Positions 1 to 44,759 of a stretch of DNA of 64,000 nt are shown here, piece by piece. This DNA comes from Nanobdellota archaeon (GTDB lineage Archaea; Aenigmatarchaeota; Aenigmatarchaeia; Aenigmatarchaeales; Aenigmatarchaeaceae). A program made the translations under genes and the position numbers. The stretch is taken from NCBI GenBank assembly GCA_018901655.1, contig JAHIEG010000004.1:4267-68266 (forward strand). The letters run 5' to 3'. How positions within the stretch are numbered: the stretch's first letter is position 1; each line of letters opens with the position of its first letter. A model generated the notes under the pieces. That model made no database searches and was not told the origin of the DNA. It worked only from the letters and a program-made list of their open reading frames with translations.

Positions 1-2
1 TA

Positions 3-3887: not shown

Positions 3888-4002
3888 TAATTATCTGTAA
3901 ACAAAGTTGGGTATAAATGTTCTTTTACTCAGAAAGTAGAGAAATCACAGTAATAACTCTTGTCATAGTAAATTATGGTATAACAAAGAATAAAAAGCTT
4001 AT

Positions 4003-4311: not shown

Positions 4312-4343
4312 AATACTAATTAGTAGAAAAACTATTTATAATA

Positions 4344-4616
4344 CTACTCCAATTTCCCTTCTTGAATATATTCGTCTATTATTTCAGTTAACATGCATAC
4401 TGGAATTCTAAGACTCTGATGCAAATCTGCTATATCAGATGTTCCCTTCATTTGAAAATACATCGCAACTTCTTTCTTTGCGTCTTCATAAACTATCTCT
4501 CTTTCAATAACTTCTCCTTCAATAATCTTGCCATCCTCAATAATCATTGTTTTAACCATAATACTAATTTGAAGAAAAGGGTATTTATATCCAGCCCATC
4601 CACATTGAAATTCCAA
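4344..4616 (-). CDS. hypothetical protein (true start possibly the internal MVKTMIIEDG…)
   Basis: ORF only. Confidence 0.3.
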   Translation of the reverse strand: MEFQCGWAGYKYPFLQISIMVKTMIIEDGKIIEGEVIEREIVYEDAKKEVAMYFQMKGTSDIADLHQSLRIPVCMLTEIIDEYIQEGKLE

Positions 4617-5661
4617 GTGCGAACATTAGTAAAGCGATTAAAAGATGAGTGTACTTCCAAACGTTCTTTCTAACCTTACTCGTCTTTTCAATACTCGAAA
4701 CTCCAAAATATATCATAAATACAAGTCCGATCATTGGTAAAATAAATATCAAATTATAAACCAATAAAAGTGGTAAAGCTGTTGTCCAAACCATTTCAGA
4801 TAATATCCCTCCAGCTACAAAGTATGGACCAATTGTACAAGGAGTTAAAAAGAGTGAAACGATTAAACCTGTTACAAATGCTCCAGGCACTGATGCTGTT
4901 TTTGATATTATTGCTCTCATCTTTGGTCTCCAACCTAAAGGCACTTCTGCTAAAGGCTTATCTGGAGTAAAGAAATCTTTCAAATTAATCAGACCTAATA
5001 AGATTGCAAAGCTTGCTAAAACTTTATAGAGAATTGATGAATTAAAACTTGCTAAACCACTTAATGATTTAAATCCTAAAACTATAAGTGATCCAAAAAT
5101 AAAATACACAGAAAATACTGCTAATGCAAAAGCAAGTCCTGCCCAAAGTATCTTTTTCTTTTTATCTGGATTTCTAATCATTATTGCTGTAAGTAACATT
5201 GTAAGAACTGCTAATTCACAAGGACTGACTGCATCTGCTGCAGCAAGTGCCATTAACTTTCCTAAATGCATTTCTTCAGGCTCGTTTATACATGTTGGTG
5301 TTTGACATCCAAATTCAATTGCTTTTTCTATCTCAACATCAAGTCCGTTTATACAAGGAATATCTCCTACACAAGTATAATCTGATATAAAGACTCTAGG
5401 AACTGAACCCCATTCGTTAGTTGGAACTCCATAATCAGTTAGCATATGTTTAAACAATTCTTGTTCAACTGATGCATCGTGTTTTATTAAAGTTAAATTA
5501 GTATATTTGACAGCCCAATCTTCTAAATATGGTTCTAAATTAACACAGTGAGGACACCCTTCTAGTCCAAAGTAATGTAATTCATGAACCTCTGCTAGCG
5601 CAGGTGTAACTAGTAAAATGAAAATCAAAATTGGAATTAAGATTTTATTCATACTGTTCAT
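4585..5661 (-). CDS. secreted thioredoxin-fold domain (CPHC) fused to a CcdA/DsbD-type transmembrane thiol-disulfide electron transporter
   Basis: N-terminal signal peptide and a CPHC redox motif, followed by a polytopic domain with the two conserved Cys of CcdA (…SPCELAV…, …TPCTIGP…). Confidence 0.7.
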   Translation of the reverse strand: MNSMNKILIPILIFILLVTPALAEVHELHYFGLEGCPHCVNLEPYLEDWAVKYTNLTLIKHDASVEQELFKHMLTDYGVPTNEWGSVPRVFISDYTCVGDIPCINGLDVEIEKAIEFGCQTPTCINEPEEMHLGKLMALAAADAVSPCELAVLTMLLTAIMIRNPDKKKKILWAGLAFALAVFSVYFIFGSLIVLGFKSLSGLASFNSSILYKVLASFAILLGLINLKDFFTPDKPLAEVPLGWRPKMRAIISKTASVPGAFVTGLIVSLFLTPCTIGPYFVAGGILSEMVWTTALPLLLVYNLIFILPMIGLVFMIYFGVSSIEKTSKVRKNVWKYTHLLIALLMFALGISMWMGWI

Positions 5662-5736
5662 AGAATTATTTAACGGTGTTACATTTAAAATATGTGGATT
5701 CTGAGGAATGTTACTAAAAGGTGTGGTGGACTTAAA

Positions 5737-5934
5737 CTATTTTTTCCAAATTCTTATTTGCACCATTACTGCACAAACCAATGATATGATCAAAAAGTAC
5801 CAAGGATTGATACTATTAACCCAATTCATTAAAGTAGGCCAGATTGTTATTGCAAATAATACAAAAGCTACAACAGCAATTTTTACTAAAGCTAAATCAA
5901 GTAGTTTTAACTTTTTCATTTGTTTTTCAAACAT
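5737..5934 (-). CDS. small membrane protein (2 TM), hypothetical
   Basis: 65-aa hydrophobic ORF, ending near the tRNA 3' end. Weak. Confidence 0.25.
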   Translation of the reverse strand: MFEKQMKKLKLLDLALVKIAVVAFVLFAITIWPTLMNWVNSINPWYFLIISLVCAVMVQIRIWKK

Positions 5935-5954
5935 GTTTTCACCTCTAATTATAA

Positions 5955-6032
5955 TGGTGCCCTCGACGGGATTCGAACCCGCGACTTTCTGATTAGAAGT
6001 CAGACACTCTATCCAAGCTGAGTTACGGGGGC
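5955..6032 (-). tRNA. tRNA-Arg (anticodon UCU), CCA encoded
   Basis: Reverse complement folds as a cloverleaf: acceptor GCCCCCG/CGAGGGC (one C·A mismatch at 5:68), D-arm ACTC…GAGT, anticodon stem TCTGA/TCAGA with loop CTTCTAA, T-arm GCGGG-TTCGAAT-CCCGT, 3' ACCA. Confidence 0.85.
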
Positions 6033-6081
6033 ATAATAAATATAGTAATTTAATAGAATTTAAAAGAATAAAAGGATGGGT

Positions 6082-6753
6082 CTATTGACCCTGCTGTCCA
6101 GAACTATTACCTTCAAATCCGTTTCCTTCTGTGTTCTGTTCTTGGTTCTGGGTTTCTCCCTGATTTTGCTCTTGATTCATTTCTTGTGCACAGTCGCATG
6201 TTTCTCCTTCTAAACAATCCCCTTGACATGTTTCTACTCCTGTACAACCTCCATCACATTCTTGAAGTCTTTCTCTTATTCTTTCTCTAATCTGTGATGT
6301 TGATTCTATTGCTTGATCTATTCCTGCTCGAGCTTCTTCAGGCACTCTCGATCTAAGTCTTTGTAAAACCTGTGTTTGTGTCTGTGCTGCTTCTTGAACT
6401 TTTGCTCCAAGTTCTGTTGTTGTTTCAGTAACTTCTTCTATATTTTCAATATACTCTTGAACTTTTTCCATTCTATATTGATATCTTTCAACCAATTGAT
6501 TCGTATATTGATATTCTCCAAGTTCATCTAATTCTTCAACTTCAGCCATTCTTCTAAGAGCATAAGCATATTGTAGTTTTGCTTTAGCTTCTTGTCTAAA
6601 TGTAAATGCAAGTGCTAAACCTTCTCCCATTTTCTTAAATCCATAAGACCAATGAGTTGGAAGTGCTCCTACATCTACTCCGAAGCTATTTGCTGCAACT
6701 ACAGGTGTTGCAAATACTAAGATTCCCATAATTATTGCTAATATTTTTTTCAT
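6082..6753 (-). CDS. secreted coiled-coil protein with a Cys-rich, Gln/Glu-rich C-terminus; hypothetical
   Basis: Signal peptide MKKILAIIMGILVFATPVVA, heptad-like central region, C-terminal CDGGCTGVETCQGDCLEGETCDC. Confidence 0.5.
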   Translation of the reverse strand: MKKILAIIMGILVFATPVVAANSFGVDVGALPTHWSYGFKKMGEGLALAFTFRQEAKAKLQYAYALRRMAEVEELDELGEYQYTNQLVERYQYRMEKVQEYIENIEEVTETTTELGAKVQEAAQTQTQVLQRLRSRVPEEARAGIDQAIESTSQIRERIRERLQECDGGCTGVETCQGDCLEGETCDCAQEMNQEQNQGETQNQEQNTEGNGFEGNSSGQQGQ

Positions 6754-6833
6754 ATAATCACTAAGTATATATTTGGGAACATCATATAAATGTATATGTG
6801 GAGAGACTGTTCGATATTGGGTGAATTAGAGTT

Positions 6834-7190
6834 ATGATAAACTTAGAACCAAAAATCACAAGAAAACGATTAATCGTAGAAGGAAGGTATACGATAAAAA
6901 TCGACGAAGAAATTATCAAAAACTTCTTAATCAAGTTAACTGAAAATTTAAAAATGAAAAAAATAATAGAACCTATTATATTTACTCCAAATGAACTTAA
7001 ACACCCAATACACCATGGAATAGCTGGTTTTATTGGTTGGGCAGAATCTGGAGGATCGGTTTATACTTGGGACAAATTTAATTTTTTTACTGTTGATATA
7101 TATACTTGTAAAGGATTCTCAGTAGAAGATGCTATAGAATTTATTAAAGATTATTTTAAAACAAGTGAGTTGGAATATCAAGAAATCTAA
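6834..7190 (+). CDS. speH: pyruvoyl-dependent decarboxylase proenzyme, SpeH family (S-adenosylmethionine or arginine decarboxylase)
   Basis: …AESGGSVYTWDKF…VDIYTCKGF… aligns to the SpeH ES(H) self-cleavage and DLFTCG motifs. Size (118 aa) fits. Confidence 0.6.
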   Translation: MINLEPKITRKRLIVEGRYTIKIDEEIIKNFLIKLTENLKMKKIIEPIIFTPNELKHPIHHGIAGFIGWAESGGSVYTWDKFNFFTVDIYTCKGFSVEDAIEFIKDYFKTSELEYQEI

Positions 7191-7201
7191 ATGGTAATAC
7201 T

Positions 7202-9808
7202 ATGACAGATTTTAAAAAGATTGAAGCAAAATGGCAAAAGAAATGGATAGAGTCAAAAATATTTGAAACCAAAGATAAAGGTAAAAAAATGTATATTCTT
7301 GAAATGTACCCCTATCCTTCTGGCTATGGTCTTCACATGGGTCATGCAAGAAACTATTCTATTGGTGATTCCTTTGCACGATTTAGAAGAATGCAAGGAT
7401 TTAATGTAATTTATCCAATGGGGTGGGATTCGTTTGGACTACCAGCTGAAAACGATGCAATTGAAAAGGGTATTCATCCAAATGAAAATATAAAGAAAAA
7501 CATTATTGTAATGAAAGAGCAAGCAAAAAGATTAAGTTTAAGCTATGATTGGTCAAAAGAATTAAACACCGCAGATCCAAATTATTATAAATGGACACAG
7601 TGGTTATTTTTAAAATTACTTGAATCTGGTTTAGCATATAGAAAATATGCACTAGGCAACTGGTGTCCTGGATGTCAAACAACTTTAGCTAATGAAGATG
7701 TTAAATCCGGAAAATGCTGGAGATGTGATTCTGAAGTTATTCAAAAAGATATTCAACAGTGGTTCTTTAAAATTACAAACTATGCTGATCGTTTATTAAA
7801 CGATATAGACAATGTAGACTGGTCTGAACGATTAAAAACAACCCAAAAAAATTGGATTGGTAAAAGTAATGGAGTAGATTTAATATTCCCTATTAAAGAT
7901 TCTAAAAAAGAAATTAAAACCTTTACAACAAGACCTGATACATATTTTGGAATTACATTTTTAGCAATGGCGCCTGAACATGAAATGGTTAACGAACTAA
8001 TTGAAAATAGTTCAAATAAAAAAGAGATTGAAAATTTTATTAAAGAAACTAGAAAATTAAGTGAACTTGAAAGAACTGCTTTACTAAAGGAAAAAAAAGG
8101 TGTGTTTACTGAAAAATATGCTATTAATCCAATTACGAAGGAAGAGATTCCAATATGGCTAGGAAATTATGTTGTATCAAGTTATGGAACTGGTGTAGTT
8201 ATTGCTGTTCCTGCTCACGATCAAAGAGATTTTGAGTTTGCAAAGCAAAATAAATTAAAAATAAAGATGGTTATCCAACCTAAAGACAGCGAACTGGATG
8301 CAAATAAAATAAAAGAGGCTTTTGTCGATGAAGGTGTAATGGCTAACTCTCCAGGATTTAATGGAACATATTCTAAAAACGCGAGTAAAGAAATTACTGA
8401 TTATCTTGTTAAAATGAAATGGGCTGAAAAAACAGTTAATTATAAATTAAGAGATTGGAATATTTCAAGACAAAGATATTGGGGTGCACCAATTCCAATT
8501 ATTTACTGTGATAAGTGTGGAATTGTTCCTGTTCCAGAAAAAGAATTACCTGTTGAATTACCACTTAATGTTGAATTTGGAAAGAAAGGAAGTACGCCTC
8601 TGGCTACAGATGAAAAGTTTATTAACACCAAGTGTCCAGTCTGTAAAGGTTCAGCAAAAAGAGAAACCGATACAATGACTACGTTTGTAGATTCTGCTTG
8701 GTATTATCTTAGATATTGTTCTCCTAATGATAAAGAAATATTTAATAAAAAGCTAGTTAACTATTGGATGCCAGTTGATCAATATATTGGTGGTATTGAA
8801 CATGCTGTTGGACACCTATTGTATTCTAGGTTTATTACAAAATTTTTAAAAGATAAAAAATATTTAGATTTTGATGAGCCATTTATGAAATTATTAAACC
8901 ATGGTATGGTGAATCTTGGTGGAAGTAAAATGAGTAAATCAAAGGGAAACGTAGTTGATCCACTAATTACAATTGAAAAGTATGGTGCCGATGCATTAAG
9001 AACATATTTATTATTTATGGCCAATCCGAGCAAAGAGGTTGAATGGTCTGAATCTGAATTAGTTTCAGTTTCTAAATTCATTGAAAAAACATATACTATG
9101 CTTGATCAAATGAAAGAAGCTAAAGGAAATAAATATATAGATAGTGTAGCACAAACTAAAATACAAAAAGTTACAAAACACCTTGAAGATCTTGAACAGA
9201 ACTATGCTGTAATTGAATTAATGGATTTCGCAAATAAATTAAATCGATATCCATCTGAATATGCTTACAAAATATTTTTGAAACTATTATCACCATTTGC
9301 TCCAGCAGTAGCAGAAGAAGTTTGGGAGAAATTAGGAGAAAAGAATTTTATCTCAATTACAAAATGGCCAACTGTTGATGTTAAAAAAATAAATCCAAAA
9401 GTAGAAGCTGGTGAAGAATATATTTATGATGTAATGAATGATATTAAAGAAATAATTAAATTGTCAAAAGTTAATCCAAATAAGATTAGCATCTTTGTAA
9501 CCCCGTCTTGGAAATATGATGTCTACAATATGATTGTAGAAGGTAAAAATCTTAGAGACATAATGAAAGATGAAAAAATAAATAAGCATGGTAAGCAAGC
9601 TACAAATTATATTATGAAATTAAATAAAAAAATTCCTTTAGATGATATGATAATGACAACAACAGTTGAAACAACTGCATTAAAAGAACATAAAAAAGAA
9701 TTTGAAGAAATCTTCAACTGTAAGATTGAAATTATTTCTGCTGAAAAATCAGACGCTCCTAAAGCAAAAATTGCTGAACCAAAGAAACCTGGAATACTAA
9801 TTGAATAG
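7202..9808 (+). CDS. leuS: leucyl-tRNA synthetase (archaeal type)
   Basis: HMGH (HIGH) motif, KMSKS motif, and the CP1 editing region. 868 aa. Confidence 0.95.
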   Translation: MTDFKKIEAKWQKKWIESKIFETKDKGKKMYILEMYPYPSGYGLHMGHARNYSIGDSFARFRRMQGFNVIYPMGWDSFGLPAENDAIEKGIHPNENIKKNIIVMKEQAKRLSLSYDWSKELNTADPNYYKWTQWLFLKLLESGLAYRKYALGNWCPGCQTTLANEDVKSGKCWRCDSEVIQKDIQQWFFKITNYADRLLNDIDNVDWSERLKTTQKNWIGKSNGVDLIFPIKDSKKEIKTFTTRPDTYFGITFLAMAPEHEMVNELIENSSNKKEIENFIKETRKLSELERTALLKEKKGVFTEKYAINPITKEEIPIWLGNYVVSSYGTGVVIAVPAHDQRDFEFAKQNKLKIKMVIQPKDSELDANKIKEAFVDEGVMANSPGFNGTYSKNASKEITDYLVKMKWAEKTVNYKLRDWNISRQRYWGAPIPIIYCDKCGIVPVPEKELPVELPLNVEFGKKGSTPLATDEKFINTKCPVCKGSAKRETDTMTTFVDSAWYYLRYCSPNDKEIFNKKLVNYWMPVDQYIGGIEHAVGHLLYSRFITKFLKDKKYLDFDEPFMKLLNHGMVNLGGSKMSKSKGNVVDPLITIEKYGADALRTYLLFMANPSKEVEWSESELVSVSKFIEKTYTMLDQMKEAKGNKYIDSVAQTKIQKVTKHLEDLEQNYAVIELMDFANKLNRYPSEYAYKIFLKLLSPFAPAVAEEVWEKLGEKNFISITKWPTVDVKKINPKVEAGEEYIYDVMNDIKEIIKLSKVNPNKISIFVTPSWKYDVYNMIVEGKNLRDIMKDEKINKHGKQATNYIMKLNKKIPLDDMIMTTTVETTALKEHKKEFEEIFNCKIEIISAEKSDAPKAKIAEPKKPGILIE

Positions 9809-24483: not shown

Positions 24484-24774
24484 ATGGTAGGTGATAAAAT
24501 GAAGAAAGAATTTAGTATAGAAGAGGCAAAGGAAATTGGTGAAAAGCTTGGAGTAAAATGGGATACGTTTGACGTTGATCAATTTAGACGAGGTATGAAT
24601 GTCGAACTAGAACATGGAACAGTTGATACAAATACAAATGTAACAAATGACGATGCTTTAATGACGGGAAAAATAACTCTAGCACATCTTAATGAAATAA
24701 GAGACTATTATGATCGTTTAGAAGAAATGGAAAAAACTGCTGAAGCTTTTTGGGAAAGCAAATCTACTGAATAA
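24484..24774 (+). CDS. hypothetical protein
   Basis: ORF only. Confidence 0.4.
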   Translation: MVGDKMKKEFSIEEAKEIGEKLGVKWDTFDVDQFRRGMNVELEHGTVDTNTNVTNDDALMTGKITLAHLNEIRDYYDRLEEMEKTAEAFWESKSTE

Positions 24775-25627
24775 TTTTTTCAGCCTCAGTTTGTAATTGT
24801 TTTATTATTCTAATAGATATTCCTGTCTTTTGACTTAATATGGTTGGATCAATTTTCACCATTTCGTTTATCAAAACGATTCCTACTGTTGCCAATTTAC
24901 CCTGCGTGTTTGTATCTAATGTATGTAAAGCTGTTATTGGATATAAATTATTTTGAACCATTAATTCTCTTAAAGAGTTTCCTCTAGGATAATTCCAACT
25001 TAATAATCTAATACCTTTTGCTTCTGCATATTTAATTACGTCTTTTGAAAACATTGTATTAGTTGCCAACCAAGATTGATCAAACTTTGGACCAAGACCT
25101 TTCTTTGAAGCATCCTGAATATCTAAAAATCTTGCATAAGTATAAAGAACATCTTTTACCCCTGTATAAATTCCAGGTGAAGCGTGATATTTACATTCAA
25201 TTACATAATTTTTCATATCTGGTGTATCTATTCCTTTTGGAACTTTAATTGATTTAGAAGCAATAACATCAATCTCATGTGTTATTCCAGATCCGCCTTT
25301 TAGTATAGAATTTATTTTTGTTTTATATCCATGAGACTTCAAAACACTTGCAACAAGTTGCTCAAATGAAAACCCACTTGGACCCAATCTTAATAGAGAA
25401 CCCTTAAGATCATAACGCATTGCAACCGTTGGCATATCTCTTCTCAATAAGTGTAATGTAATATTAAGAACTTCCTGAGTTGACATCCCACCTGTTACTT
25501 TCTGCTCAACTTTTTTAGCAATCTGATCAGCTAATTGTTTAGACGCCCCTGCTCTACGACAAGTTCGTCTTATCTTATTTATATTAAACTTAACTATTTT
25601 TCCAGTTGACTTAGTTATCCAAACCAT
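24764..25627 (-). CDS. ATP-cone domain + Mrr-like restriction-endonuclease-fold (PD-(D/E)xK) domain protein
   Basis: N-terminal …KIVKFNINKIRRTCRRAG… ATP-cone. C-terminal …HEIDVIAS…VIECKYH… D/ExK motif. Confidence 0.6.
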   Translation of the reverse strand: MVWITKSTGKIVKFNINKIRRTCRRAGASKQLADQIAKKVEQKVTGGMSTQEVLNITLHLLRRDMPTVAMRYDLKGSLLRLGPSGFSFEQLVASVLKSHGYKTKINSILKGGSGITHEIDVIASKSIKVPKGIDTPDMKNYVIECKYHASPGIYTGVKDVLYTYARFLDIQDASKKGLGPKFDQSWLATNTMFSKDVIKYAEAKGIRLLSWNYPRGNSLRELMVQNNLYPITALHTLDTNTQGKLATVGIVLINEMVKIDPTILSQKTGISIRIIKQLQTEAEKIIQ

Positions 25628-30141: not shown

Positions 30142-30720
30142 ATGCGAATAGGAATAGACGTTGATCAGGTTTTACTTGATATTCTACCACCACTGTTAGA
30201 ATATCATAATGAAAGATATGGAACAAATAGTAGTGTTTCTGAACTAGCATCACGTAATTTGGCGCAAGTATGGAATTGTGATCAAAAGGAAACATTAAAA
30301 AGAATTCACGATTTTTATAATACAAAATATTTCAATAAAGTCGTCCCTATTACAGGAGCAGTTAAATCTGCTCAACAATTAGCTAAAAATTATGAATTAT
30401 ATACTGTAACTTCTAGAACAATAAAACATGCAGACAAAACAGTTAAACAAATCGAAAAACATTTCCCCAATATTTTTGATATGATACTATTTGATAATGA
30501 ATATAATAATGACACCATTGATATTCGTAAAAAGATTGAAGTTTGCCAAGATTATAATCTTAAAATTCTAGTTGATGATCATGCTAAAAACCTTAGAGAT
30601 ATTCCTTCTAATATGACTGGTATTTTATTTGATAGGCCCTGGAATCAAAAAGAAACTCCTAAGGATGTAATTCGTGCTTATGATTGGAAAGGTGTTATCG
30701 AACTAATAGAAAAAATATAA
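30142..30720 (+). CDS. HAD-superfamily 5'(3')-deoxyribonucleotidase-like phosphatase
   Basis: N-terminal …IGIDVDQVL… (DxD HAD motif I) and C-terminal …VDDH… motif. Confidence 0.6.
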   Translation: MRIGIDVDQVLLDILPPLLEYHNERYGTNSSVSELASRNLAQVWNCDQKETLKRIHDFYNTKYFNKVVPITGAVKSAQQLAKNYELYTVTSRTIKHADKTVKQIEKHFPNIFDMILFDNEYNNDTIDIRKKIEVCQDYNLKILVDDHAKNLRDIPSNMTGILFDRPWNQKETPKDVIRAYDWKGVIELIEKI

Positions 30721-30991
30721 TCGTTTATTCTTAGTGATCTTCACGCGCTATTGACTTTTCTCCTGAACTCTCACATTTTAGGGTGGGTCATTTTTTGTTT
30801 TGTCTAAAATCTTATATTCTATAAGATATACTTTATATAATATATATAGAAATATACCCATTAAGACATATACCATACGTCATAACTATTTAATCATATG
30901 TTATGAAATATATCTTTTATAACATATATTCTATAACACGCTTTTTACAACCATTACATTTTTACTATTTCATAGGCACTAATAACTACTA

Positions 30992-31330
30992 TTATTTTAC
31001 ATGACTATGAAAGTCTTGCACAGTTTTTGTCATAAACCCTAAAAATCGATCAGGCGAAAGATAATAATGGGTTTTATACTTCTTTTTACCACCGTCTTCA
31101 TAAACTCTTTTCTCCTGTATCAACTGTACTTTCTTAAGTGGATTAACAACGAAATAAAACGTACGTTTAGGCTTCTGGTACTCAGTAAACCCTATATCAA
31201 GTGCTTTACACAGCTCTTGATAGTCCATAGATTGTTCGGTTTTAAGGATCTCTATAACTTTTTGAGCCATATCTCTAATATGCTTATTACGTCCAGATTT
31301 TCCATACAACCAAGTTAATAAATCATTCAT
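30992..31330 (-). CDS. hypothetical protein (islet gene)
   Basis: ORF. Upstream region carries two CAAGTGTC repeats. Confidence 0.4.
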   Translation of the reverse strand: MNDLLTWLYGKSGRNKHIRDMAQKVIEILKTEQSMDYQELCKALDIGFTEYQKPKRTFYFVVNPLKKVQLIQEKRVYEDGGKKKYKTHYYLSPDRFLGFMTKTVQDFHSHVK

Positions 31331-31508
31331 TTTATCACCAAATATATTAGATTAACATCAAGTGTCCTTACTATAAAATTAGACCAAACTTGTATTTATA
31401 GATATGTCTATGGAACACATATCTGTGCAAATTAGCTTGATTATACGATATTGAAGATACTTAACTATTAGATATTAACAACAAGTGTCTTAATATTTTT
31501 CTAAAAAA

Positions 31509-31877
31509 TTATTTTGAAGTTTTAATAATTTTATTGATCTTGGCTGAAACTGCTTCCCTACTCGGTACTCTAACTTTATCAAATTTTCTTTGTAATCCTT
31601 CAAAATCGTGTGCAATATCAGTACCCAAATCTGTTAATTTTACTATCTTTATCCTGCCTTTTTTATCAAAACTTACTAAACCAAGATTCTTAAAATTGTC
31701 TAATACTTTAACTGTATGAGAATATGTACAATCAACAGATTTTGCAACTTGTGTTGCATATCTTACAGAATCTTTTTTTAAAGAAATAAGCATTTTAACT
31801 GGCTTTGAATGCAAAAATAATACATCAAGTTGATTTTGGTCTTCTTTTTTTATTACCATACTATTAGCCCCTAACAC
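31509..31877 (-). CDS. winged-helix transcriptional regulator (MarR/ArsR-like)
   Basis: …YATQVAKSVDCTYSHTVKVLDNFKNLGLVSFDKKGRIKIVKLTDLG… HTH + wing. Confidence 0.55.
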   Translation of the reverse strand: MLGANSMVIKKEDQNQLDVLFLHSKPVKMLISLKKDSVRYATQVAKSVDCTYSHTVKVLDNFKNLGLVSFDKKGRIKIVKLTDLGTDIAHDFEGLQRKFDKVRVPSREAVSAKINKIIKTSK

Positions 31878-31888
31878 TAATTTGTTTT

Positions 31889-31906
31889 AACACTTATTTA
31901 AGTGTT
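31889..31906. promoter_or_regulatory. perfect 8+8 inverted repeat AACACTTA-TT-TAAGTGTT overlapping the promoter of the wHTH gene (candidate auto-operator)
   Basis: Seen directly. Half-site AAGTGT also occurs at 31358..31367 and 31481..31490 (ATTAACA-N-CAAGTGTC direct repeats). Confidence 0.45.
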
Positions 31907-32064
31907 TTCTATATACACAATTATAACTAATATAACATATATGTTTTAATATATTTATAGTTTTATATGTTATAGTATATGTGCTTTTTATTATAATGTT
32001 TATAATAGATACTTTATAATATATATTATTTAGGATATCCTTTTAAAGTTGATAGATTAAACTC

Positions 32065-32868
32065 TCACATTTGGTATTTTGAAAAATATGTTATAATACT
32101 GTTCCAAATTTTTCTTGCATCGTCAATATTTGTCGACTTAAATGTGCCTTCACCCATAATGACCAGATAGACAATATATCTCCACCTTGGTTCAATCAGT
32201 TCTATTTTTGTTCTTCTACCACATTTGATTTTCTTTATTATATTAATTTTTTCCAAAACTCCTAAAGAAGAATACAGGTCTAACTTATTCGAAAGTTTGT
32301 AACCTTCATTTTCTATAAAATCTGAAACTGTTTCATACTTACCGACTGTCAATAAACTTAGAAAGTGGTACAGGGTTGAAGGGAATGTACTCCTTTCCTT
32401 TATCCAGTATTTATTGAACATATCATCTAAAATTTCAAAAAATATTTCCTCTTTACTATACTTACGTTCTAGAAAACCATTTAATTTGTTCATATGTTCA
32501 AATGGTAAAAATAAATCAAATATAATATTTCCATATATTACATTCGTTGCTGAATATCTCCCAGATGCCCTTTTAATTATTAAAATATTTCTCCAATTGT
32601 CTTTAGGATATATTTTTTGTAATAGTTGGTTTCTAAACGTTGCTTGGGATAGCATGTTCCTAACATATGTTGGATCCTTTTGTTTGTTACCCAAATCATC
32701 TATCCACTTTATTTCTAACATAATATTATTATATAAAAGAAAGTCTGGTTTAAACTTCCCTATAACCTGAACACTTGTTTTATAATTTATTTTGTTGATT
32801 TTTAGATATTTTTCAACCTCCATTTCTAATGCTCTGTAAGGTTTTTCTTTTATAGTATTCATAAACAT
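32065..32868 (-). CDS. PD-(D/E)xK nuclease-fold (DUF559/Vsr-like) N-terminal domain + C-terminal winged helix; hypothetical
   Basis: …KFKPDFLLYNNIMLEIKW… (D…ExK), then a C-terminal HTH-like segment. Confidence 0.45.
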   Translation of the reverse strand: MFMNTIKEKPYRALEMEVEKYLKINKINYKTSVQVIGKFKPDFLLYNNIMLEIKWIDDLGNKQKDPTYVRNMLSQATFRNQLLQKIYPKDNWRNILIIKRASGRYSATNVIYGNIIFDLFLPFEHMNKLNGFLERKYSKEEIFFEILDDMFNKYWIKERSTFPSTLYHFLSLLTVGKYETVSDFIENEGYKLSNKLDLYSSLGVLEKINIIKKIKCGRRTKIELIEPRWRYIVYLVIMGEGTFKSTNIDDARKIWNSIITYFSKYQM

Positions 32869-32963
32869 ATTATGATGTATATGTTTAAATGTTTAATTTT
32901 ATGATATATGTTGTACAAATGTGAAGGTTAAAAGTTTTTCATTATAATTATAATTGTGAGAAT

Positions 32964-33327
32964 ATGATAAATTGGAAAGATTGCCCCTACAGGGGTAAGG
33001 GGTTTTCAGATGAAAATGTATGTATAATAGATCCAGAACACTTTACAATAGATGATTTAAAATTCGATAAAATAGAAGCTGATACATTAAAAAAAAAGGT
33101 CTGGAATAGAAAAATCTTGGAGAATCTATCGAAATAATATCAAACGTATCTACAATGAGTGCCCCCATTTATCTAAAAGTGCTATATATAATAAAGAAGA
33201 AAGAATAGCTTGGTTTTTAGATAGTATAAAAATATATGAAAATGTTCAAAAGGTCATCCCAAATGAGAGCATCGTAGAATTAGGTATGAGGTGCCCGTGT
33301 CTATATCCAAATAAATATCAGGAATAG
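32964..33327 (+). pseudogene. Cys-containing small ORF broken by a +1 frameshift in an A8 run (33090..33097)
   Basis: Frame A is MINWKDCPYRGKGFSDENVC…DTLKKK. Frame C continues …SGIEKSWRIYRNNIKRIYNECPHLSK…RCPCLYPNKYQE*. Removing one A fuses them (about 120 aa). Confidence 0.35.
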
Positions 33328-33339
33328 TATATTCTTACT

Positions 33340-33543
33340 ATGGATTTACCATTAGCTCCTATTGAAAAAATGCTAAAAAGAACTCATATGAGAGTTTCTG
33401 ATGACGCAATCAAAGAATTTACAAAACTTTTAGAAGAAACAATAGCAGATATAGCAGCTGAAGCAGCAACCAGCGCAAAATCCCATAAAAGAAAGACGAT
33501 ACAAAGATCTGATATTCTTGACGCTAAACGGAAACTACTCTAA
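33340..33543 (+). CDS. archaeal histone (HMf family, histone fold)
   Basis: 67 aa: …LPLAPIEKMLKRTHMRVSDDAIKEF…AEAATSAKSHKRKTIQRSDILDA…. Confidence 0.9.
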   Translation: MDLPLAPIEKMLKRTHMRVSDDAIKEFTKLLEETIADIAAEAATSAKSHKRKTIQRSDILDAKRKLL

Positions 33544-37032: not shown

Positions 37033-38107
37033 ACATTGTTTTTACTTTAGGTGTTAAAGAATACATAAATGTCTTTCCTCTTGATTCTCTTTGAACAAAC
37101 CCGTCTAACATTAGTCGATGAAGAATATTATTAGTTGATCTAATTGCGTGTCCTTTTGTCTTATAGGACTTAAAATCAAGCTTTTCTATAATCAGAGACG
37201 GTGTAACCCAATTTTCATTAGATAAAAGTTCAACTATTTTTCTCTGTTTGTATGGAAGACTCTTAATTTGATCCATTGATGGTGGTTTAGGTGAAAAATA
37301 AACAACTGGTTCATCAACTCTCACATTTTGCGGTGTGAATTCCCTTAATCCATCAACATCTGATGCATCTATTACTTTTTTATCAACTCGACTAATTAAT
37401 TTATCACAGTGTTTTAAAACTTCTCTTGGAAATCCACCTGTTCGATGATAAATCTTATCAATTGCATCTTCTGTAAACGGAATCGTGCCTGAACCTCCTA
37501 CAGATTCAATTCTCTTTCTTATCAAATCTCGAGTATCGTCTCTTGTAAGTGATGTTAAGGTTATTCTATTAGTTATTCTTTGATCTAAGGTTTCAAGTTT
37601 CTCTTTTAACATTTCTTCAAGAACTGGTAATCCAGCCATTGTTAGACTAACATTATCTATTTGATCAACTGTTACTCTTAACCATTCTAAAACATCTTTA
37701 TTAGTTTCGTGTGCTTCATCAAGTAAAAATACCAAATGGTTGCCTTTTAGCTTATTATTTATATATTTTGGTAAATTATGTAGATTTGGTTTCTTTTTTA
37801 ATATTTTTTCCCAAAACGTTAATGGAAAAGCATCTAATGCTATGTCTACAAACATATCTGGATTTTGAGGCGGCTTACTTACATAGAACACATTTTCTCT
37901 AATATTATATTCAAGCCACTTTAACATAGAAGTCTTTCCAGAACCTGTATTTCCAGTCAAAAGAGCTACTTTATGCTTATTTTCTATATGATTCATCATA
38001 GCTTTTACTTGTTCCTCATACCCAGTAAATAACTTAGGATCTATTGTAAGTACAAAAGGATTCGATTTCCAATTCCATTTAGTTAAATTGTCTTGCATCT
38101 TAATCAA
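37019..38107 (-). CDS. AAA+ ATPase with C-terminal winged helix, Orc1/Cdc6-like (possible second initiator paralogue or Arch_ATPase family)
   Basis: Walker A GNTGSGKTS, Walker B LVFLLDEAHE, C-terminal wHTH …RKIVELLSNENWVTPSLIIEKL…. Its start abuts the repeat array. Confidence 0.55.
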   Translation of the reverse strand: MIKMQDNLTKWNWKSNPFVLTIDPKLFTGYEEQVKAMMNHIENKHKVALLTGNTGSGKTSMLKWLEYNIRENVFYVSKPPQNPDMFVDIALDAFPLTFWEKILKKKPNLHNLPKYINNKLKGNHLVFLLDEAHETNKDVLEWLRVTVDQIDNVSLTMAGLPVLEEMLKEKLETLDQRITNRITLTSLTRDDTRDLIRKRIESVGGSGTIPFTEDAIDKIYHRTGGFPREVLKHCDKLISRVDKKVIDASDVDGLREFTPQNVRVDEPVVYFSPKPPSMDQIKSLPYKQRKIVELLSNENWVTPSLIIEKLDFKSYKTKGHAIRSTNNILHRLMLDGFVQRESRGKTFMYSLTPKVKTMFVEA

Positions 38108-38142: not shown

Positions 38143-38420
38143 GTTCACGTGAAGTTCATGTGAACATTTCGTGAAGGTTTCACGTGAAGTTGCTTTGTTT
38201 TTGTTAAAAAATCATATAATTTTGATTAAAAATGAAATGTGTGTTTTCGGCGTGAAGTTCATGTGAAGTTCACGTTACCTTCACGTGAAGGTCTAAATGT
38301 TCACGTGAACATTTATCAGAATGTTGAAATTACAATGCCCAATAAGTCGGTTTTGAGAGATATTCACGTGAAGTTCACGCGTGAAGATGTGAAGGTTTCG
38401 TGAAGAACAAAGTGAAGGTT
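38143..38420. repeat. array of about 12 copies of the palindromic motif (T)TCACGTGAAG(G/T)T in direct and inverted orientation (ORB-like), with an A/T-rich stretch; candidate replication origin or initiator binding platform
   Basis: Seen directly: GTTCACGTGAAGTTCATGTGAAC, TTTCACGTGAAG, a perfect 20-nt palindrome AAATGTTCACGTGAACATTT (38297..38316), ATTCACGTGAAGTTCACGCGTGAAG, and others. A/T-rich 38193..38245. Confidence 0.6.
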
Positions 38421-39806: not shown

Positions 39807-42800
39807 TTAAGCCCCACCTACAAAACCACAATCATCACACACTGCCAAGTCTTTTGTAAACGCAAAGTATTGTATTGCTGTTTTTGTTGCAATGTTTTTA
39901 GTTAATTGGGTTATTGCATCTGGGTCTGGATTAGCATCAGCAAGCCATATATGACTCATTGCTCCTCCATCTGTTAAAGGATGAAAGGATCCTTCTATTT
40001 GTAATCTTTTGAATAGTGGCACATTTGCATCTGGCCTTACGTGAAATGAATTGGTATAATATATTGATTTTGTATCTGAATTTCCTTGATAAATTACTTT
40101 ATTTGGATATCGTCTTTTATCTATCATTGCTAAACGACCACCCGTTGATTCAGCTGGAGTTCTTGCCAAAGCAAAATTTAATCCTGTTTCTTCTCTAAGT
40201 GCTGCTATCTTAGTTTTTAAATATTTCATTATTTTTAATCCAAACATCCAAGCTGACTGACTTTCATGTAATTCAGAACCTGTATAATATTTTACCATTT
40301 CATTAAATCCAATATGACCAATTGTATAACTCTGTTTTAAAGGTTCTAAGTATCTATCACCTTTTTCATTTACTATTTGACTCATGAAAGGTAACATTCC
40401 ATTTTGTAAATTCTTTTCTATTAAATCTTTTCTAAGAATCATAATTCTTTTAATCAATTCTAATCTCTCATCAATTATTTCATATATTCTGCTTTCTTCT
40501 TTATCAGACTCATATGCAATTTGTGGTAAGTTTAAAGTTACTACTTGTAATGATCCTCCTCTGACAGTTCCGTTTAACATGTCATCTGCATCTGATGATT
40601 TATCTAATGGCATAAGATAGGCACAACAGTTCGATGAAAATATTCCATCTGATGTTAAAAAATTATGATACTTTTCAACATTAATTAAATCATATACGTA
40701 TCGGCTTTTTACTTCTTCTATTTTCTTTACTTCAAATAAGTGTAAATCGCTTCTTATGAATTTTGAATATAATTCATCGTTCATTTCGAGTCTTTTTTCT
40801 GTTACTCTTTTACCAATTTGACACCTGTTCCAATGTCCTGTTTTTAAATTTTCTCTTTTAATATCAAATGGATTAACTGGGACCCTTTCATAAGAATCAA
40901 ATGATTTACCTAATATTGTAGGAACGTTATCAGAAAATGGCACTGATTCCAGAAATGAGCTCTTTCTTAAATTACTTGTTAATCTTAACGAATGAGAATT
41001 TTCTCCATGATATTTATCAAATGGAACCCCTATTCTCAAACCAAGTACAAAAATATCATCAATTAAGTCTCTATTACACAAATGTAAATCTATCTTATCT
41101 GAATTTGAACCGTCTCCTCTAAACATTCCAAGCATGAAATCCTTTATAATATACCAAGGAGAAGTCATGAGTATTTTTGGTACTCTTTTGGTTTTAGCAT
41201 CATAATTTGTTCCAATATTATCAAATAGTTCAACAAGTTCTTTGCTATAAACATAAACTGTGTTTGTATTATTCTTTTCTGAAATATCAAACTTAGCTTC
41301 TAAACCAAATTTTTCCTTAAGTATTTTAGCTGTATCGTCAATGTATTCTTTTTCTTTAATATTGAATGAGAATGATATCTTGTTATATCTTGTTTTCTTA
41401 TTTGCTATGTGCATATATCCTTCACTTGCAAAATATCCAAGAAGTCTTGCAAATTTAGCATCTATTTCTATTTTTTTATTATTAAAATCAACAAATCGAT
41501 CAAATTCAAACTCAAGTGGTAAATTCTTAGCACCAATTAAATAGTCTCCTTTCTTGACATCTTCCATTCTTATTTCACTTATCTTATTATTCCTCACAAC
41601 TGGTATTTTGTGTTTTTCTGTTCCTGAAAAAGTCCTATTTCCATCAAGAATTAATTTGAAAATCTTTTCTTTTGTTTCGTGTTTCATTACTTTTTCTATT
41701 TTTGTTTTCTTTATTTCAAGCGTATTTGTATCGAATGATATTGCATAATCATTACATTTTGATAGCTTAACTTTTCCTTCAATGCCGCTTCCTTTCTCGA
41801 CTATAGATTTTTTCATTATAGATTCAACATATTCTCCTATTTCGATATTTATGAGTCTATCATCTCTTAAAATCAATATCTTCTCTTCACCTGGTATTGA
41901 TTGATAACATGAAAATTCAGGCATATATGGCTGTTTAATTATGTAATATGGTGTTCCAAACTTTGCTGCAAGACTAGAAACTTTATACGTCTCTTCATTG
42001 TATCTTCCAGCTGCTAAATCTTTTGGATCCATTTGTACTTCAAACTTAGGAAAGTTAAATGGTTTTCCTTGCCAATCTCCTTTATCAAACACGTCTAAAA
42101 ATGCATTAAATAGTTTTCTTGTCTCATCTTCATAGTCTCCATAAGTTCCTGTTGCTCCACTTTTTCTTAATCCAATTATTGGAATGTCTTTTAACATATT
42201 TGGAACATGCATATCTAAATCGATTGAAGAAAATACAACCTGTCCTCCTCGCGCAACATACATTTGACTATTATGCAAAGCTATACCACTGATTGAAATA
42301 AAGTTCTGTGTTTCTTCTATCTCTAAATCATAAACATAAATTTCTTTATCTAATTTTTTAATACTTGTTATTTTTTCCAAGAATAGGTCATGGTTTAGAG
42401 GATTACAAGGAATGTTAGAAACATTCGTCATTGTTCCATTAAATGGTGCTAACATATAATCTGGCGTCTGTGGTACTCCTTTATTTTTTATTATATTTTC
42501 CAGTTTCAATGCCTTTTCATTCACAAATCCTATCTGATCCAAAAATTTCTTTGCAGAACTAATATCACATATATATAATAAATTAGAATCTTCATTTGCT
42601 TTTGTCTTTACTCCTTTGATAATAATCTCTTCTCCAGCTTTTCTAAATATCTTAGATTTAAATACAAGACCAAATCTTAAAAATGCAAATCTTAACTGTT
42701 CTAAAAGCTTTTTACTCGATGTTGTCATACCTACCATTCTTGAATCTGAAACATAACCGTCACTATTTACATAAGACTTTAAAAATTGTGACAATTTTTC

Positions 42801-44759
42801 TTTAGGTAAAGCTAATAGCCATGATGGTATTTTCTTATCTATAGCGTGTTCCCCCAGACCAAGAATGTCTCTAAATAACAAAGCCGCCAGCTTACCACCA
42901 AATCTTAAATTATACTCCTCTGCTTCATATGGATCAACTGACCCAAACACATGTTTTACACAAAATATGGCATCTTTTTTTATTAATTCGTTGTGGTCTA
43001 TACCAAGTCCTATTCCCATATTTTCATCAGAGGAATTAGTATAGCCTTCTGCAACATAGTATCCTATAAGTCTCAACAGTTCATCTGAAATACTTAATTT
43101 CAATGGCAAATAATATTTCTTTTTTGAAAATGTAGAAGATGTAACAAGTATATTTGATAAGACGCTTTTAGGCACATTATGTTTATCTACAATCTCTGTT
43201 AATTTTTTAAAACTTATTGTTCTTTTGCCTTCTAAAGCCTGTTTAACAAACCAACTATCTCCGATTTCTTTAGATGCTGAACCTAAAAAATCTATTAGTG
43301 GTTTGATGTTTGTAATTCTTAGCTTATGATAATCTCTTTTCTTTAATTCTTCATAAATATCTATAAATTCCTTGTCTATAGAAAAATCAATGTTTTTTAT
43401 TCCAACTATAAAATCATCATGCTTTAACTTAGACGTTTTTACTGGAACGATTTTTTCGCCATTAAATGTAAAAACAGAATGATGCCCCGTTAAACTAATC
43501 TTTTTGCCAAAGTTTGTTCTTATTTCATATAAATCAGATGCTTTATGTCTAGACACTCCTGTTATCTGCATCTGTTTAATGGTTCCGTTTTCATCAAAAC
43601 TAAGTGTTTTATATTTCCTATTTTTTGTTTTGACAATTTCGCTTTTACTGTATCTGTGAACATCATTACTATTATCCACTATATTATCAACAAAATCTTT
43701 TATCTTAAAAATTCTAAATTCGTTTTCTTCGTCTATTACTGGTATCTCTTCTTCTCCATCAATGCTCATTTCATAAATAAACATTTGAGCTAGTTGTTTC
43801 ATCTGCTTTTCAGATAATCCAGAAACAGCTGGTGCCATAAAAGTATTAAAGAATGAAAACCCCTGTCCTCCTGCACAATTAGTCTGTGATGCTGCTAAAA
43901 TTTTTGCAGCGTGTAAAAAAGCAACTTCTGCGTTTTTTGCTGGACCAGCTATTGATGTATGCCTTCCTGTTCCATCTGGTTTAAAACCGTGTTTTAGGAA
44001 AAATCTAACATCATGACTAAAACAAAATGGTCGACTAAAGAAATAATCCATATCGTGAATATGAATGCTTCCATTCATGTGTGCATTTGCCATTTCTTTA
44101 GGAAGGATTTTAGTTAATGTGTATTCTTTACTTACTCGGTCAGCCATTATTTTATGAATTGTTTCTGGATTATACTGTAGGTTTGCATTTTCTTTTGATC
44201 CTCTATTTATTATTTGAGTTACATCATAAACTGGCATTCCAATTCTTGTATATAGTGCTCTTTCTTTTTCATAACCACTTTCTAAAAGTTTAACATTTAC
44301 TATTTCTCTTATTAGTGGTGCAGAAACATGTTCAATATTCATTGCTTTAATAAATTTTTCTGTCTCAAATGCAATCCGATCTGCATCTATAGGATTAAGT
44401 TCTGTTTCTCTAACAATTGATTCTGCGATTTTAACTCTATCAAATCTTTCAAAGGTCTGCATAGAAGTGCTTACATATATTTCTCCTGCTTTGAATCTTC
44501 TTGATGCAGGCGAATCATATTTTTGTAATAAAGCATAAATTAAAGGTCTAATATCTGACATCTTTACTCTTGAATCAGCGTAGTTATCAATTTCATTTGA
44601 TATTTTTCTTGCTATCTCTTCAGAAGTTCCTGCTCTTAGACATGATGAAAATGTTCTATCTTTAGAATAACGTTCAGTTTTTGCTAACCAGAATAGTACG
44701 TTACCCTTATCTTTGGTATAAAAATCTTCAATTACTTTAGGAGATATCTTACTAGACAT
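39807..44759 (-). CDS. nrdD: anaerobic (class III) ribonucleoside-triphosphate reductase, large part, containing two inteins; ends inside the Zn-ribbon (…CDDCGFVGGA*)
   Basis: Exteins (aa 1-331, 831-950, 1378-1650) carry NrdD motifs (N-terminal ATP-cone-like region, …NCAGGQGFSFF…). Two insertions have intein Hint/LAGLIDADG blocks. Confidence 0.9.
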   Translation of the reverse strand: MSSKISPKVIEDFYTKDKGNVLFWLAKTERYSKDRTFSSCLRAGTSEEIARKISNEIDNYADSRVKMSDIRPLIYALLQKYDSPASRRFKAGEIYVSTSMQTFERFDRVKIAESIVRETELNPIDADRIAFETEKFIKAMNIEHVSAPLIREIVNVKLLESGYEKERALYTRIGMPVYDVTQIINRGSKENANLQYNPETIHKIMADRVSKEYTLTKILPKEMANAHMNGSIHIHDMDYFFSRPFCFSHDVRFFLKHGFKPDGTGRHTSIAGPAKNAEVAFLHAAKILAASQTNCAGGQGFSFFNTFMAPAVSGLSEKQMKQLAQMFIYEMSIDGEEEIPVIDEENEFRIFKIKDFVDNIVDNSNDVHRYSKSEIVKTKNRKYKTLSFDENGTIKQMQITGVSRHKASDLYEIRTNFGKKISLTGHHSVFTFNGEKIVPVKTSKLKHDDFIVGIKNIDFSIDKEFIDIYEELKKRDYHKLRITNIKPLIDFLGSASKEIGDSWFVKQALEGKRTISFKKLTEIVDKHNVPKSVLSNILVTSSTFSKKKYYLPLKLSISDELLRLIGYYVAEGYTNSSDENMGIGLGIDHNELIKKDAIFCVKHVFGSVDPYEAEEYNLRFGGKLAALLFRDILGLGEHAIDKKIPSWLLALPKEKLSQFLKSYVNSDGYVSDSRMVGMTTSSKKLLEQLRFAFLRFGLVFKSKIFRKAGEEIIIKGVKTKANEDSNLLYICDISSAKKFLDQIGFVNEKALKLENIIKNKGVPQTPDYMLAPFNGTMTNVSNIPCNPLNHDLFLEKITSIKKLDKEIYVYDLEIEETQNFISISGIALHNSQMYVARGGQVVFSSIDLDMHVPNMLKDIPIIGLRKSGATGTYGDYEDETRKLFNAFLDVFDKGDWQGKPFNFPKFEVQMDPKDLAAGRYNEETYKVSSLAAKFGTPYYIIKQPYMPEFSCYQSIPGEEKILILRDDRLINIEIGEYVESIMKKSIVEKGSGIEGKVKLSKCNDYAISFDTNTLEIKKTKIEKVMKHETKEKIFKLILDGNRTFSGTEKHKIPVVRNNKISEIRMEDVKKGDYLIGAKNLPLEFEFDRFVDFNNKKIEIDAKFARLLGYFASEGYMHIANKKTRYNKISFSFNIKEKEYIDDTAKILKEKFGLEAKFDISEKNNTNTVYVYSKELVELFDNIGTNYDAKTKRVPKILMTSPWYIIKDFMLGMFRGDGSNSDKIDLHLCNRDLIDDIFVLGLRIGVPFDKYHGENSHSLRLTSNLRKSSFLESVPFSDNVPTILGKSFDSYERVPVNPFDIKRENLKTGHWNRCQIGKRVTEKRLEMNDELYSKFIRSDLHLFEVKKIEEVKSRYVYDLINVEKYHNFLTSDGIFSSNCCAYLMPLDKSSDADDMLNGTVRGGSLQVVTLNLPQIAYESDKEESRIYEIIDERLELIKRIMILRKDLIEKNLQNGMLPFMSQIVNEKGDRYLEPLKQSYTIGHIGFNEMVKYYTGSELHESQSAWMFGLKIMKYLKTKIAALREETGLNFALARTPAESTGGRLAMIDKRRYPNKVIYQGNSDTKSIYYTNSFHVRPDANVPLFKRLQIEGSFHPLTDGGAMSHIWLADANPDPDAITQLTKNIATKTAIQYFAFTKDLAVCDDCGFVGGA
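40629..41909 (-). mobile_element. intein 2 in NrdD (about 427 aa) with LAGLIDADG homing-endonuclease domain
   Basis: Begins CYQSIPGEEKILI, LAGLIDADG motifs …FARLLGYFASEGY… and …FMLGMFRGDGS…, ends …VYDLINVEKYHNFLTSDGIFSSN followed by C. Confidence 0.8.
42270..43766 (-). mobile_element. intein 1 in NrdD (about 499 aa) with LAGLIDADG homing-endonuclease domain
   Basis: Begins SIDGEEEIPV (block A-like), LAGLIDADG-type motifs …LLRLIGYYVAEGY… and …LKSYVNSDGYV…, ends …VYDLEIEETQNFISISGIALHN followed by S. Confidence 0.8.

Follow-up and report, generated by a model that had tools for sequence, protein, structure and literature searches.

The region described here occupies positions 30721 to 33339 of a 64,000-nucleotide stretch of DNA, referred to below as the window, from a DPANN archaeon. 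The window has about 30% GC and encodes a histone, RPA and RadA. The proteins of the region are deposited in NCBI as KJ906_01175 to 01190, under a metagenome-assembled genome (MAG) labelled "Nanoarchaeota archaeon", and the named homologs of its winged helix-turn-helix (wHTH) protein belong to Aenigmatarchaeota. The same sequence is contained in an ENA assembly and in a Logan assembly, in which the region is base-for-base identical. Three genes are located on the minus strand: a gene for a 112-aa protein (30992-31330), the gene for a 116-aa winged-helix regulator, the wHTH protein (31509-31859, ATG start), and a gene for a 267-aa protein (32065-32868) with an N-terminal PD-(D/E)xK-type motif and a C-terminal winged helix, the putative nuclease. 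On the plus strand lie a HAD-type gene (NT5C/HAD, 30142-30720) convergent with the 112-aa gene, a frameshifted gene for a small Cys-rich protein (Cys open reading frame, or Cys ORF; 32964-33327) and an archaeal histone gene (33340-33543; Pfam CBFD_NFYB_HMF, E 7.8e-13), which is the first of a conserved histone-RPA-RadA block. The original prediction for this DNA, made from the sequence alone, described the block as one small acquired or selfish cassette with its own repressor. Its observations largely hold, but most of its interpretation does not: this is an ordinary regulatory neighbourhood, conserved and specific to the lineage, that holds one rare, probably mobile nuclease gene and one frameshifted small gene.

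The spacers of the region are long and A/T-rich, as predicted. They measure 271 bp between the HAD and 112-aa genes (30721-30991), 178 bp in the control region of the 112-aa gene (31331-31508), 205 bp upstream of wHTH (31860-32064) and 95 bp in the divergent promoter spacer between the nuclease gene and the Cys ORF (32869-32963), against a window median of 53.5 bp. Their GC content is 18-26%, with 18% in the last two, compared with 28% across all intergenic DNA of the window. The claim that all genes lie on the strand opposite to their neighbours is true of three of the four, the exception being the Cys ORF, which runs in the same direction as the histone gene. A foreign composition was not confirmed when the compositional comparison was run, the GC of the three minus-strand genes (0.33, 0.274 and 0.277) lying inside the window range of 0.308 +/- 0.028 and their codon usage inside the window's spread. 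The 2.6-kb block as a whole is a tetranucleotide outlier of the window (top 1%); the likeliest reason is that intact ORFs make up only about 57% of it. Curated family thresholds (Pfam, NCBIfam, PHROGs, PADLOC) were passed by no protein of the region.

For the wHTH protein more than 390 homologs were found, of which the 120 listed ones are 55-87% identical to it. The family profile matches PDB entry 2QVO (AF_1382, a winged-helix protein) over residues 14-89 with E 2.2e-7. The window's protein alone remains sub-threshold (Pfam HTH_27, 17.7 bits vs a cut-off of 22.2), several homologs carry a precomputed PF13463 annotation, and PADLOC reported only a winged-helix-domain similarity to Csa3/CasR. 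The 112-aa protein is 60-81% identical to the product of the gene after wHTH in the related loci L018, L020, L027 and L028. It gave sub-threshold winged-helix-type matches only (DUF7648, PF0610-like_N and E2F_TDP) and no PDB match, and is probably a second winged-helix DNA-binding protein. Scans of viral contigs with both proteins returned no match.

Synteny was read on the contigs of five wHTH homologs. The order in L020-22 and L028 is AAA_22 ATPase, ADK-like kinase and PRC, then RadA, RPA and histone in one orientation, followed by wHTH and a gene for a protein of about 110 aa, with wHTH pointing away from the histone. L023-25 show the same order as far as wHTH, after which comes a gene (132 aa) that is non-homologous to the 112-aa gene. 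In L027 the full order of the window recurs: a convergent NT5C/HAD gene, the 112-aa gene, wHTH and a nuclease gene on the opposite strand, and then the Cys ORF and histone in the orientation of the HAD gene. The 126-aa Cys ORF of L027 ends 12 nt before the histone start (MDLPLAPV), which lies at the contig end, a junction as in the window, and the only non-orthologous element between the two loci is the nuclease gene. On the strength of this distribution wHTH is a conserved core gene of Aenigmatarchaeota-type DPANN archaea, and it forms with the 112-aa gene a two-gene module, in all probability vertically inherited, that faces away from histone-RPA-RadA. The HAD/NT5C proteins of the window (30142-30720) and of L027 (2807-3388) are only 34% identical, next to 112-aa proteins that are 81% identical; either very unequal rates or the replacement of HAD/NT5C by a paralog would account for this contrast. 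A synteny search through RPA yielded one short contig (L009) with the histone inverted, which is uninformative, and a metagenome scan with a RadA alignment gave only RecA-like matches of 23-33% identity. Near the locus a conserved protein, an unusual nuclease fusion of ATP-cone, Mrr_cat and AF1548-like_C domains, is encoded in the window (24764-25627), in L023 (9925-10797) and in L027 (6406-7272).

The perfect palindrome AACACTTATTTAAGTGTT that had been predicted in the wHTH promoter is present at 31889-31906, between a TATATA element (31910-31915) and the wHTH start, although its role as an operator did not hold up. Perfect palindromes with 8-bp arms are found 18 times in the window, compared with 17.1 +/- 4.3 in Markov simulations. 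The left half belongs to a conserved AAC(A/C)CTTAAATA element and the right arm is absent from the closest relatives, L026 having AACACTTAAATAATTAAT and L018 AACCCTTAAATAATTCG at this place. Because the palindrome is neither conserved nor statistically unusual, the AAGTGT half-site supposed to join it to two repeats near the 112-aa gene finds no comparative support. The reading of the whole 2.6-kb block as one acquired or selfish cassette, in which wHTH represses through the palindrome and the half-site repeats, could draw on this palindrome, on the long AT-rich spacers and the tetranucleotide outlier, and on three genes co-oriented against their neighbours. Against it stand the typical gene composition, the chance frequency and lack of conservation of the palindrome and, above all, the conservation of wHTH and the 112-aa gene in the same surroundings in many relatives. 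This conserved synteny, including the order of L027, is the outcome that the original prediction had itself named as its refutation; it largely disproves the cassette, which we find hardly credible.

The two direct repeats that had been noted upstream of the neighbouring gene are also present, and these proved to be evolutionarily conserved control elements. Both copies of ATTAACANCAAGTGTC read GACACTTGNTGTTAAT on the minus strand; box 1 (31474-31489) follows the wHTH stop and box 2 (31351-31366) lies about 123 bp from it. The palindrome AGATATGT-N9-ACATATCT at 31400-31424 abuts the TATA box of the 112-aa gene (TATAAATA, 31393-31400), and the Shine-Dalgarno sequence GGTGAT of this gene is located at 31334-31339 on the minus strand. 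In an alignment of the wHTH/112-aa spacer from six genomes both boxes, the palindrome, TATAAATA and GGTGAT were all kept. From the usual archaeal TATA-to-start spacing, box 2 would fall at the predicted transcription start and leader. The core of this spacer is identical at 47/49 positions between the window and L018, the whole aligned block averaging about 72%, and conservation in the spacer cores exceeds that of the coding DNA beside them. Conserved blocks of the HAD/112-aa spacer could likewise be aligned with L018, L027, L028 and L020 (the blastn match with L018 reaches 30842), and the wHTH upstream region with L018, L020, L023 and L026. An exact third copy of ATTAACANCAAGTGTC, within the LeuRS coding sequence (8621-8636, coding FINTKCP), came as a surprise, with 0.25 copies expected even when two mismatches are allowed, and was taken as coincidence.

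Cores that are more conserved than the adjacent coding DNA, each with a hairpin-capable inverted repeat, could also be small non-coding RNA genes. The spacers, however, gave no Rfam match, and RNAalifold found short invariant stems with essentially no compensatory change. The stem in the 112-aa spacer, being without covariation, is therefore more likely a DNA site than an RNA structure, and one stem abuts a TATA box as a promoter element would. RNA genes are thus a very improbable explanation. The conserved spacer elements are predicted to be protein-binding DNA sites, and the AT-rich spacers that carry them would be conserved promoter and control regions, not scars of acquisition.

A further motif, AAATGTGAGAGTT, is found on the minus strand at 32060-32072, 210 nt upstream of the wHTH ATG and overlapping the nuclease stop codon, and at 30766-30778, some 215 nt past the end of the 112-aa gene. 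Its positions in relatives are -209 to -215 (L018, L020, L027 and L028) and -96 to -103 upstream of the wHTH ATG, and about 28 nt and 210 to 218 nt downstream of the 112-aa stop, the last of these in four relatives; the window retains the -210 and +215 copies. Homology with nuclease-free relatives stops at the copy at 32060-32072. An inverted copy with two mismatches is located at 32917-32929 in the 95-bp spacer; with its flanking bases it matches 32057-32073 in a 14/17 inverted repeat that encloses the nuclease gene. The possibility that AACTCTCACATTT is an attachment (att)-type direct repeat or part of terminal inverted repeats was rejected because the same motif stands at the same distances in relatives without the nuclease.

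The AAA_22 ATPase gene itself contains an exact AACTCTCACATTT (37316-37328), whose codons read QNVRVDE. L028 has this DNA motif at the equivalent coding position (1129); the conservation is that of coding sequence. Upstream of this gene two adjacent perfect palindromes, ACCTTCACGTGAAGGT and AAATGTTCACGTGAACATTT, with a TTCACGTGAA core, occupy 38277-38314 of a 393-bp spacer, and a degenerate AAATGTGAGAGTT-type motif near them at 38388 completes a candidate operator cluster.

Fixed positions of AAATGTGAGAGTT around the module, its degenerate copy upstream of the AAA_22 ATPase gene, the nearby RPA/RadA/histone cluster and a spacer of only 18% GC could together suggest a replication origin or a chromatin boundary. 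The motif copies around the module are in direct orientation, however, and not inverted around an unwinding element. No Orc1/Cdc6 gene is adjacent (the AAA_22 protein best matches ExeA-like ATPases, with ORC-CDC6-like at E 0.0047 only), and the GC skew has no clear local switch at the region. The motif also appears unlike the consensus of the origin recognition box (ORB). An origin or boundary is consequently judged very unlikely.

The frameshift in the Cys ORF had been predicted correctly. The plus-strand ORF at 32964-33137 changes frame at an A9 run (33089-33097) and then reads on to a stop at 33325-33327, 12 nt before the histone ATG; deletion of one A from the run restores a 120-aa Cys-rich protein. 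L027 has an intact ORF of 126 aa to which both halves align across the break (34% identity, E 3e-28), with the motifs CPYR..F..E..CI.DP.HF, C.HL.K and C.CLYPNKYQ kept on both sides, and for this reason the Cys ORF is considered a real gene. The ENA and Logan assemblies both carry this frameshift unchanged. A homolog search with the repaired ORF found nothing, and its sole homolog, that of L027, was found by chance. The gene belongs to the sub-lineage of the window and L027 and is tied to the histone gene; here it may be a recent pseudogene or be expressed via slippage at the A9 run.

The 267-aa protein belongs to a rare family. Among 5.8 billion proteins two other clusters were found (55-56% full-length identity), and a profile search covering 1.84 billion representatives brought in another two, with 35% and 24% identity; the family has about five clusters among these representatives. 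Residues P41-D42 and K54 are invariant, and E52 is present in 4/5 members, the most distant having Q. An AlphaFold2 (AF2) model built from five sequences is of medium confidence, with a predicted local distance difference test (pLDDT) score of 71.7. Its N-terminal half has an alpha-beta-beta-beta-alpha-beta arrangement (helix 5-24, strands at about 43 and at 49-56, helix 73-86, strand 92-99). The C-terminal winged helix is predicted confidently (helices 164-174, 181-188 and 192-207; strands 211-216 and 219-224), and the best PDB matches of this part are MarR and ArsR winged helices.

Foldseek with this model returned no significant nuclease; its best matches of this kind were a CDAN1-interacting nuclease (E 0.15) and a DUF559 protein (E 0.97). 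The assignment as a nuclease therefore depends on the motif, on the topology of the model and on three profile matches below threshold: PDDEXK_3 (14.6 bits, cut-off 22), GxxExxY (14.9 bits, cut-off 35) and a PHROG endonuclease (E 0.04). A PDB profile search found only an ArsR winged helix at E <= 10, and no PADLOC defence-system model matched the protein. It has no Pfam match at E <= 0.1; the DUF559/Vsr label of the original prediction was dropped, as neither family is matched at that level in Pfam or NCBIfam. The ratio of nonsynonymous to synonymous substitution rates (dN/dS) between the window and L026 is 0.16, which points to a functional gene. Its product is probably a solitary restriction-type or homing-type endonuclease, sub-types that are not separable here, which would spread by recombination.

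The place of the nuclease gene, between wHTH and the Cys ORF or histone, is a variable slot. In a blastn comparison of the window with L020 the match is continuous from 32067 to 31065 and is followed by a second match in the histone gene (33467-33331); the gap between the two measures about 106 bp in L020 and 1264 bp in the window. In L020 and L023 the slot is empty; L028 has a gene for a VTT-domain membrane protein there, and L027 a gene for a Cas4-like PDDEXK_1 nuclease (Pfam 4.3e-9; PADLOC Cas4 1.1e-9). No nuclease is present in L020, L023/24/25 and L028; members of the 267-aa family are found in the window, in L008 and in L026. The closest relative, L026, whose wHTH is 83% identical, has the nuclease in the same place, with 92% amino acid identity over the 197 available residues. 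In L008 the gene lies directly upstream of a wHTH homolog that is only 50% identical.

Other members of the family have different surroundings. In L029 the gene adjoins a tyrosine integrase, and in L030, which has the most distant homolog, it lies on a 44.5-kb contig of small ORFs on one strand. The contig end that holds it (positions 1-7331) includes two phage-type HNH endonuclease genes, an intein-bearing ATPase-like ORF and a phrog_4273 match (E 2e-19); its probable source is a virus of an AT-rich host. In L005 a nuclease gene of 28% GC is embedded in a contig of about 50% GC that carries an Orc1/Cdc6-type gene. Within 6878-8013 of this contig it is bounded by two perfect 15-bp inverted-repeat pairs (6930-6944/7822-7836 and 6965-6979/7796-7810), with an AT-rich HNH gene after it. 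Two Logan assemblies show the same junctions, their contigs breaking within or near the flanks.

Outside the inverted pairs of L005 direct repeats were observed, CT(T/C)CACCCAAATTGCT and TCGCAACTTCGT, with the right-hand copy interrupted by a hairpin-like insert of 50 nt. An integron-like cassette array was considered for this locus and rejected, there being only one flanking pair of direct repeats. A second AT-rich segment (8142-9432, 27-30% GC) with an HNH_4 endonuclease gene and a small ORF with a weak, sub-threshold dUTPase_2 match resembles a small island of foreign, possibly defence-type genes.

An element of the insertion sequence (IS) or miniature inverted-repeat transposable element (MITE) type could not be recognized: the window has only the 14/17 inverted repeat, L005 shows no clean target duplication, and no transposase domain was found. 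A viral-contig scan with the nuclease and tblastn against phage and plasmid collections also gave nothing. No tRNA gene lies next to the nuclease gene in L005, L008, L029 or L030, and in L027 a tRNA-Gln gene is 4.5 kb from the Cas4-like slot gene. Elsewhere in the window, the anaerobic ribonucleotide reductase NrdD (39807-44759, minus strand, 1650 aa) has two inteins with LAGLIDADG homing-endonuclease domains according to precomputed Pfam annotation; homing elements are therefore present in this genome.

A comparison of the window with L026 revealed discordant divergence. By the Nei-Gojobori method the number of synonymous substitutions per synonymous site (dS) amounts to 0.20 in the nuclease gene, five-fold lower than the 1.03 of its neighbour wHTH, with synonymous differences at 20.5 of 115 sites vs 40.5 of 72 (Fisher p = 1.3e-7). 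The spacer is 89% identical and identity falls at the wHTH promoter, as seen on one partial contig with one flank. Such a mosaic would fit a recent exchange of the nuclease segment between lineages, and the nuclease gene is the only one in the region that looks horizontally mobile.

We therefore consider it probable that the 2.6-kb region consists of an inherited core and one mobile gene, while several points weigh against this. The nuclease fold depends on a motif and a model of medium confidence (pLDDT 71.7), with curated thresholds and Foldseek negative. The dS contrast comes from one partial 1.4-kb contig and could also be produced by replacement of wHTH. For the window's own lineage no pair of empty and filled sites with defined ends was found, and one arm of the 14/17 inverted repeat is a pre-existing conserved motif. 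Finally, a nuclease just upstream of wHTH in the same orientation in three lineages could mean a functional link instead of parasitism.

This last point makes it possible that the nuclease is not selfish at all and is a chromosomal repair or recombination enzyme working with, or controlled by, the wHTH module and the RPA/RadA cluster, the slot being filled by different PD-(D/E)xK nucleases in different lineages. The arrangement is shared by the window and L026, by L008 (all with the 267-aa family) and by L027 with its Cas4-like protein; the dN/dS value is one of purifying selection, and RPA, RadA and histone are neighbours. Yet the gene is absent from L020, L023 and L028, which retain the rest of the locus; other family members are accompanied by an integrase or phage-type HNH genes, or sit as an AT-rich insert in a 50% GC genome, and dS disagrees with that of the neighbouring gene. 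A resident repair enzyme is accordingly regarded as rather unlikely.

Under the preferred reading of an inherited core with one mobile gene, the core would comprise the wHTH and 112-aa module and, in this sub-lineage, the small Cys-rich gene immediately upstream of the histone gene. The 112-aa gene would be expressed from its own TATA box, abutted by AGATATGT-N9-ACATATCT, in a promoter bracketed by the two GACACTTGNTGTTAAT boxes, and copies of AAATGTGAGAGTT would stand at fixed distances on either side of the module. The conserved sites may be bound by one or both winged-helix proteins as regulators of the module. Between wHTH and the Cys ORF/histone there would be a variable slot, here taken by the rare PD-(D/E)xK and winged-helix endonuclease gene, which may spread horizontally, entering by recombination both this permissive site between genes and other mobile contexts.

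A bolder version can be offered, though we hold it to be unlikely as a whole. In it the 267-aa protein would found an undescribed family of free-standing homing-type PD-(D/E)xK-winged-helix enzymes of DPANN archaea and viruses, which would repeatedly target the DNA upstream of a conserved regulator gene and would have crossed into an unrelated archaeal genome of 50% GC, possibly from symbiont to host. In addition, the boxes around the wHTH/112-aa pair might define a lineage-wide regulon coupling the two winged-helix proteins to histone-RPA-RadA.

The locus illustrates that an AT-rich, strand-inverted block of low coding density in a DPANN genome of 30% GC can be a conserved regulatory neighbourhood and not an island, and that comparative synteny, not composition, decides between the two. 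DPANN organisms have almost no characterised regulators, and a strongly conserved pair of small DNA-binding proteins with well-defined candidate operators next to histone-RPA-RadA offers a testable entry to their transcription control. With the nuclease, the PD-(D/E)xK-winged-helix endonucleases, a group of practical use for its modification-dependent or site-specific activity, would gain a rare family. The gene also documents gene flow among DPANN genomes, virus-like contigs and a compositionally unrelated archaeon.

Among known systems, the wHTH family profile resembles AF_1382 of Archaeoglobus fulgidus (PDB 2QVO), a small winged-helix protein that is itself uncharacterised. The protein of the window differs from it by an extra basic C-terminal tail and by belonging to a tightly conserved, lineage-specific family. 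The Cys ORF recalls the genes of AT-rich, reduced genomes, such as those of insect endosymbionts, in which frameshifts at poly(A) tracts are rescued by transcriptional slippage: it too has a single-base frameshift at an A9 run with both halves conserved, in a reduced genome of about 30% GC. In contrast to those genes it is known here from its sequence alone and may simply be a recent pseudogene.

For the nuclease, Cas4/PDDEXK_1 comes into view through the Cas4-like gene in the equivalent slot of L027. The 267-aa protein has no BLASTP similarity to it at E <= 0.1, and it lacks the Cys cluster and has a winged helix instead. The closest described architecture is that of R.DpnI, an enzyme of about 254 aa and hence of similar size, with the same domain order as the AF2 model of the 267-aa protein. 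DpnI-type PD-(D/E)XK-winged-helix fusions (type IIM or type IV, dependent on N6-methyladenine) consist of an N-terminal catalytic domain and a C-terminal winged helix (PMC3424567, PMC4117772, PMC11037411). Such enzymes are encoded by solitary, horizontally mobile genes, as the one described here appears to be. No methyltransferase was noticed among the called neighbours of the nuclease, where no search aimed at methyltransferases was made. The two differ in that no sequence relationship connects them, with no DpnI-family Pfam match at E <= 0.1 and no DpnI chain in the PDB profile search at E <= 10, and in that the host is a DPANN archaeon.

Homing enzymes of the PD-(D/E)xK type are rare. The behaviour of the gene is nevertheless similar to that of free-standing homing genes such as Seg and Mob of phage T4, for which co-conversion is expected to lower the divergence of flanking DNA (PMC2988022, PMC2790892). 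It lies on a cellular chromosome and not in a phage, and its homing role is putative. Like Seg and Mob it is intergenic, present in some genomes and missing from the same site in close relatives; its flanking DNA appears, on the one flank compared in one partial contig, less diverged than the next gene.

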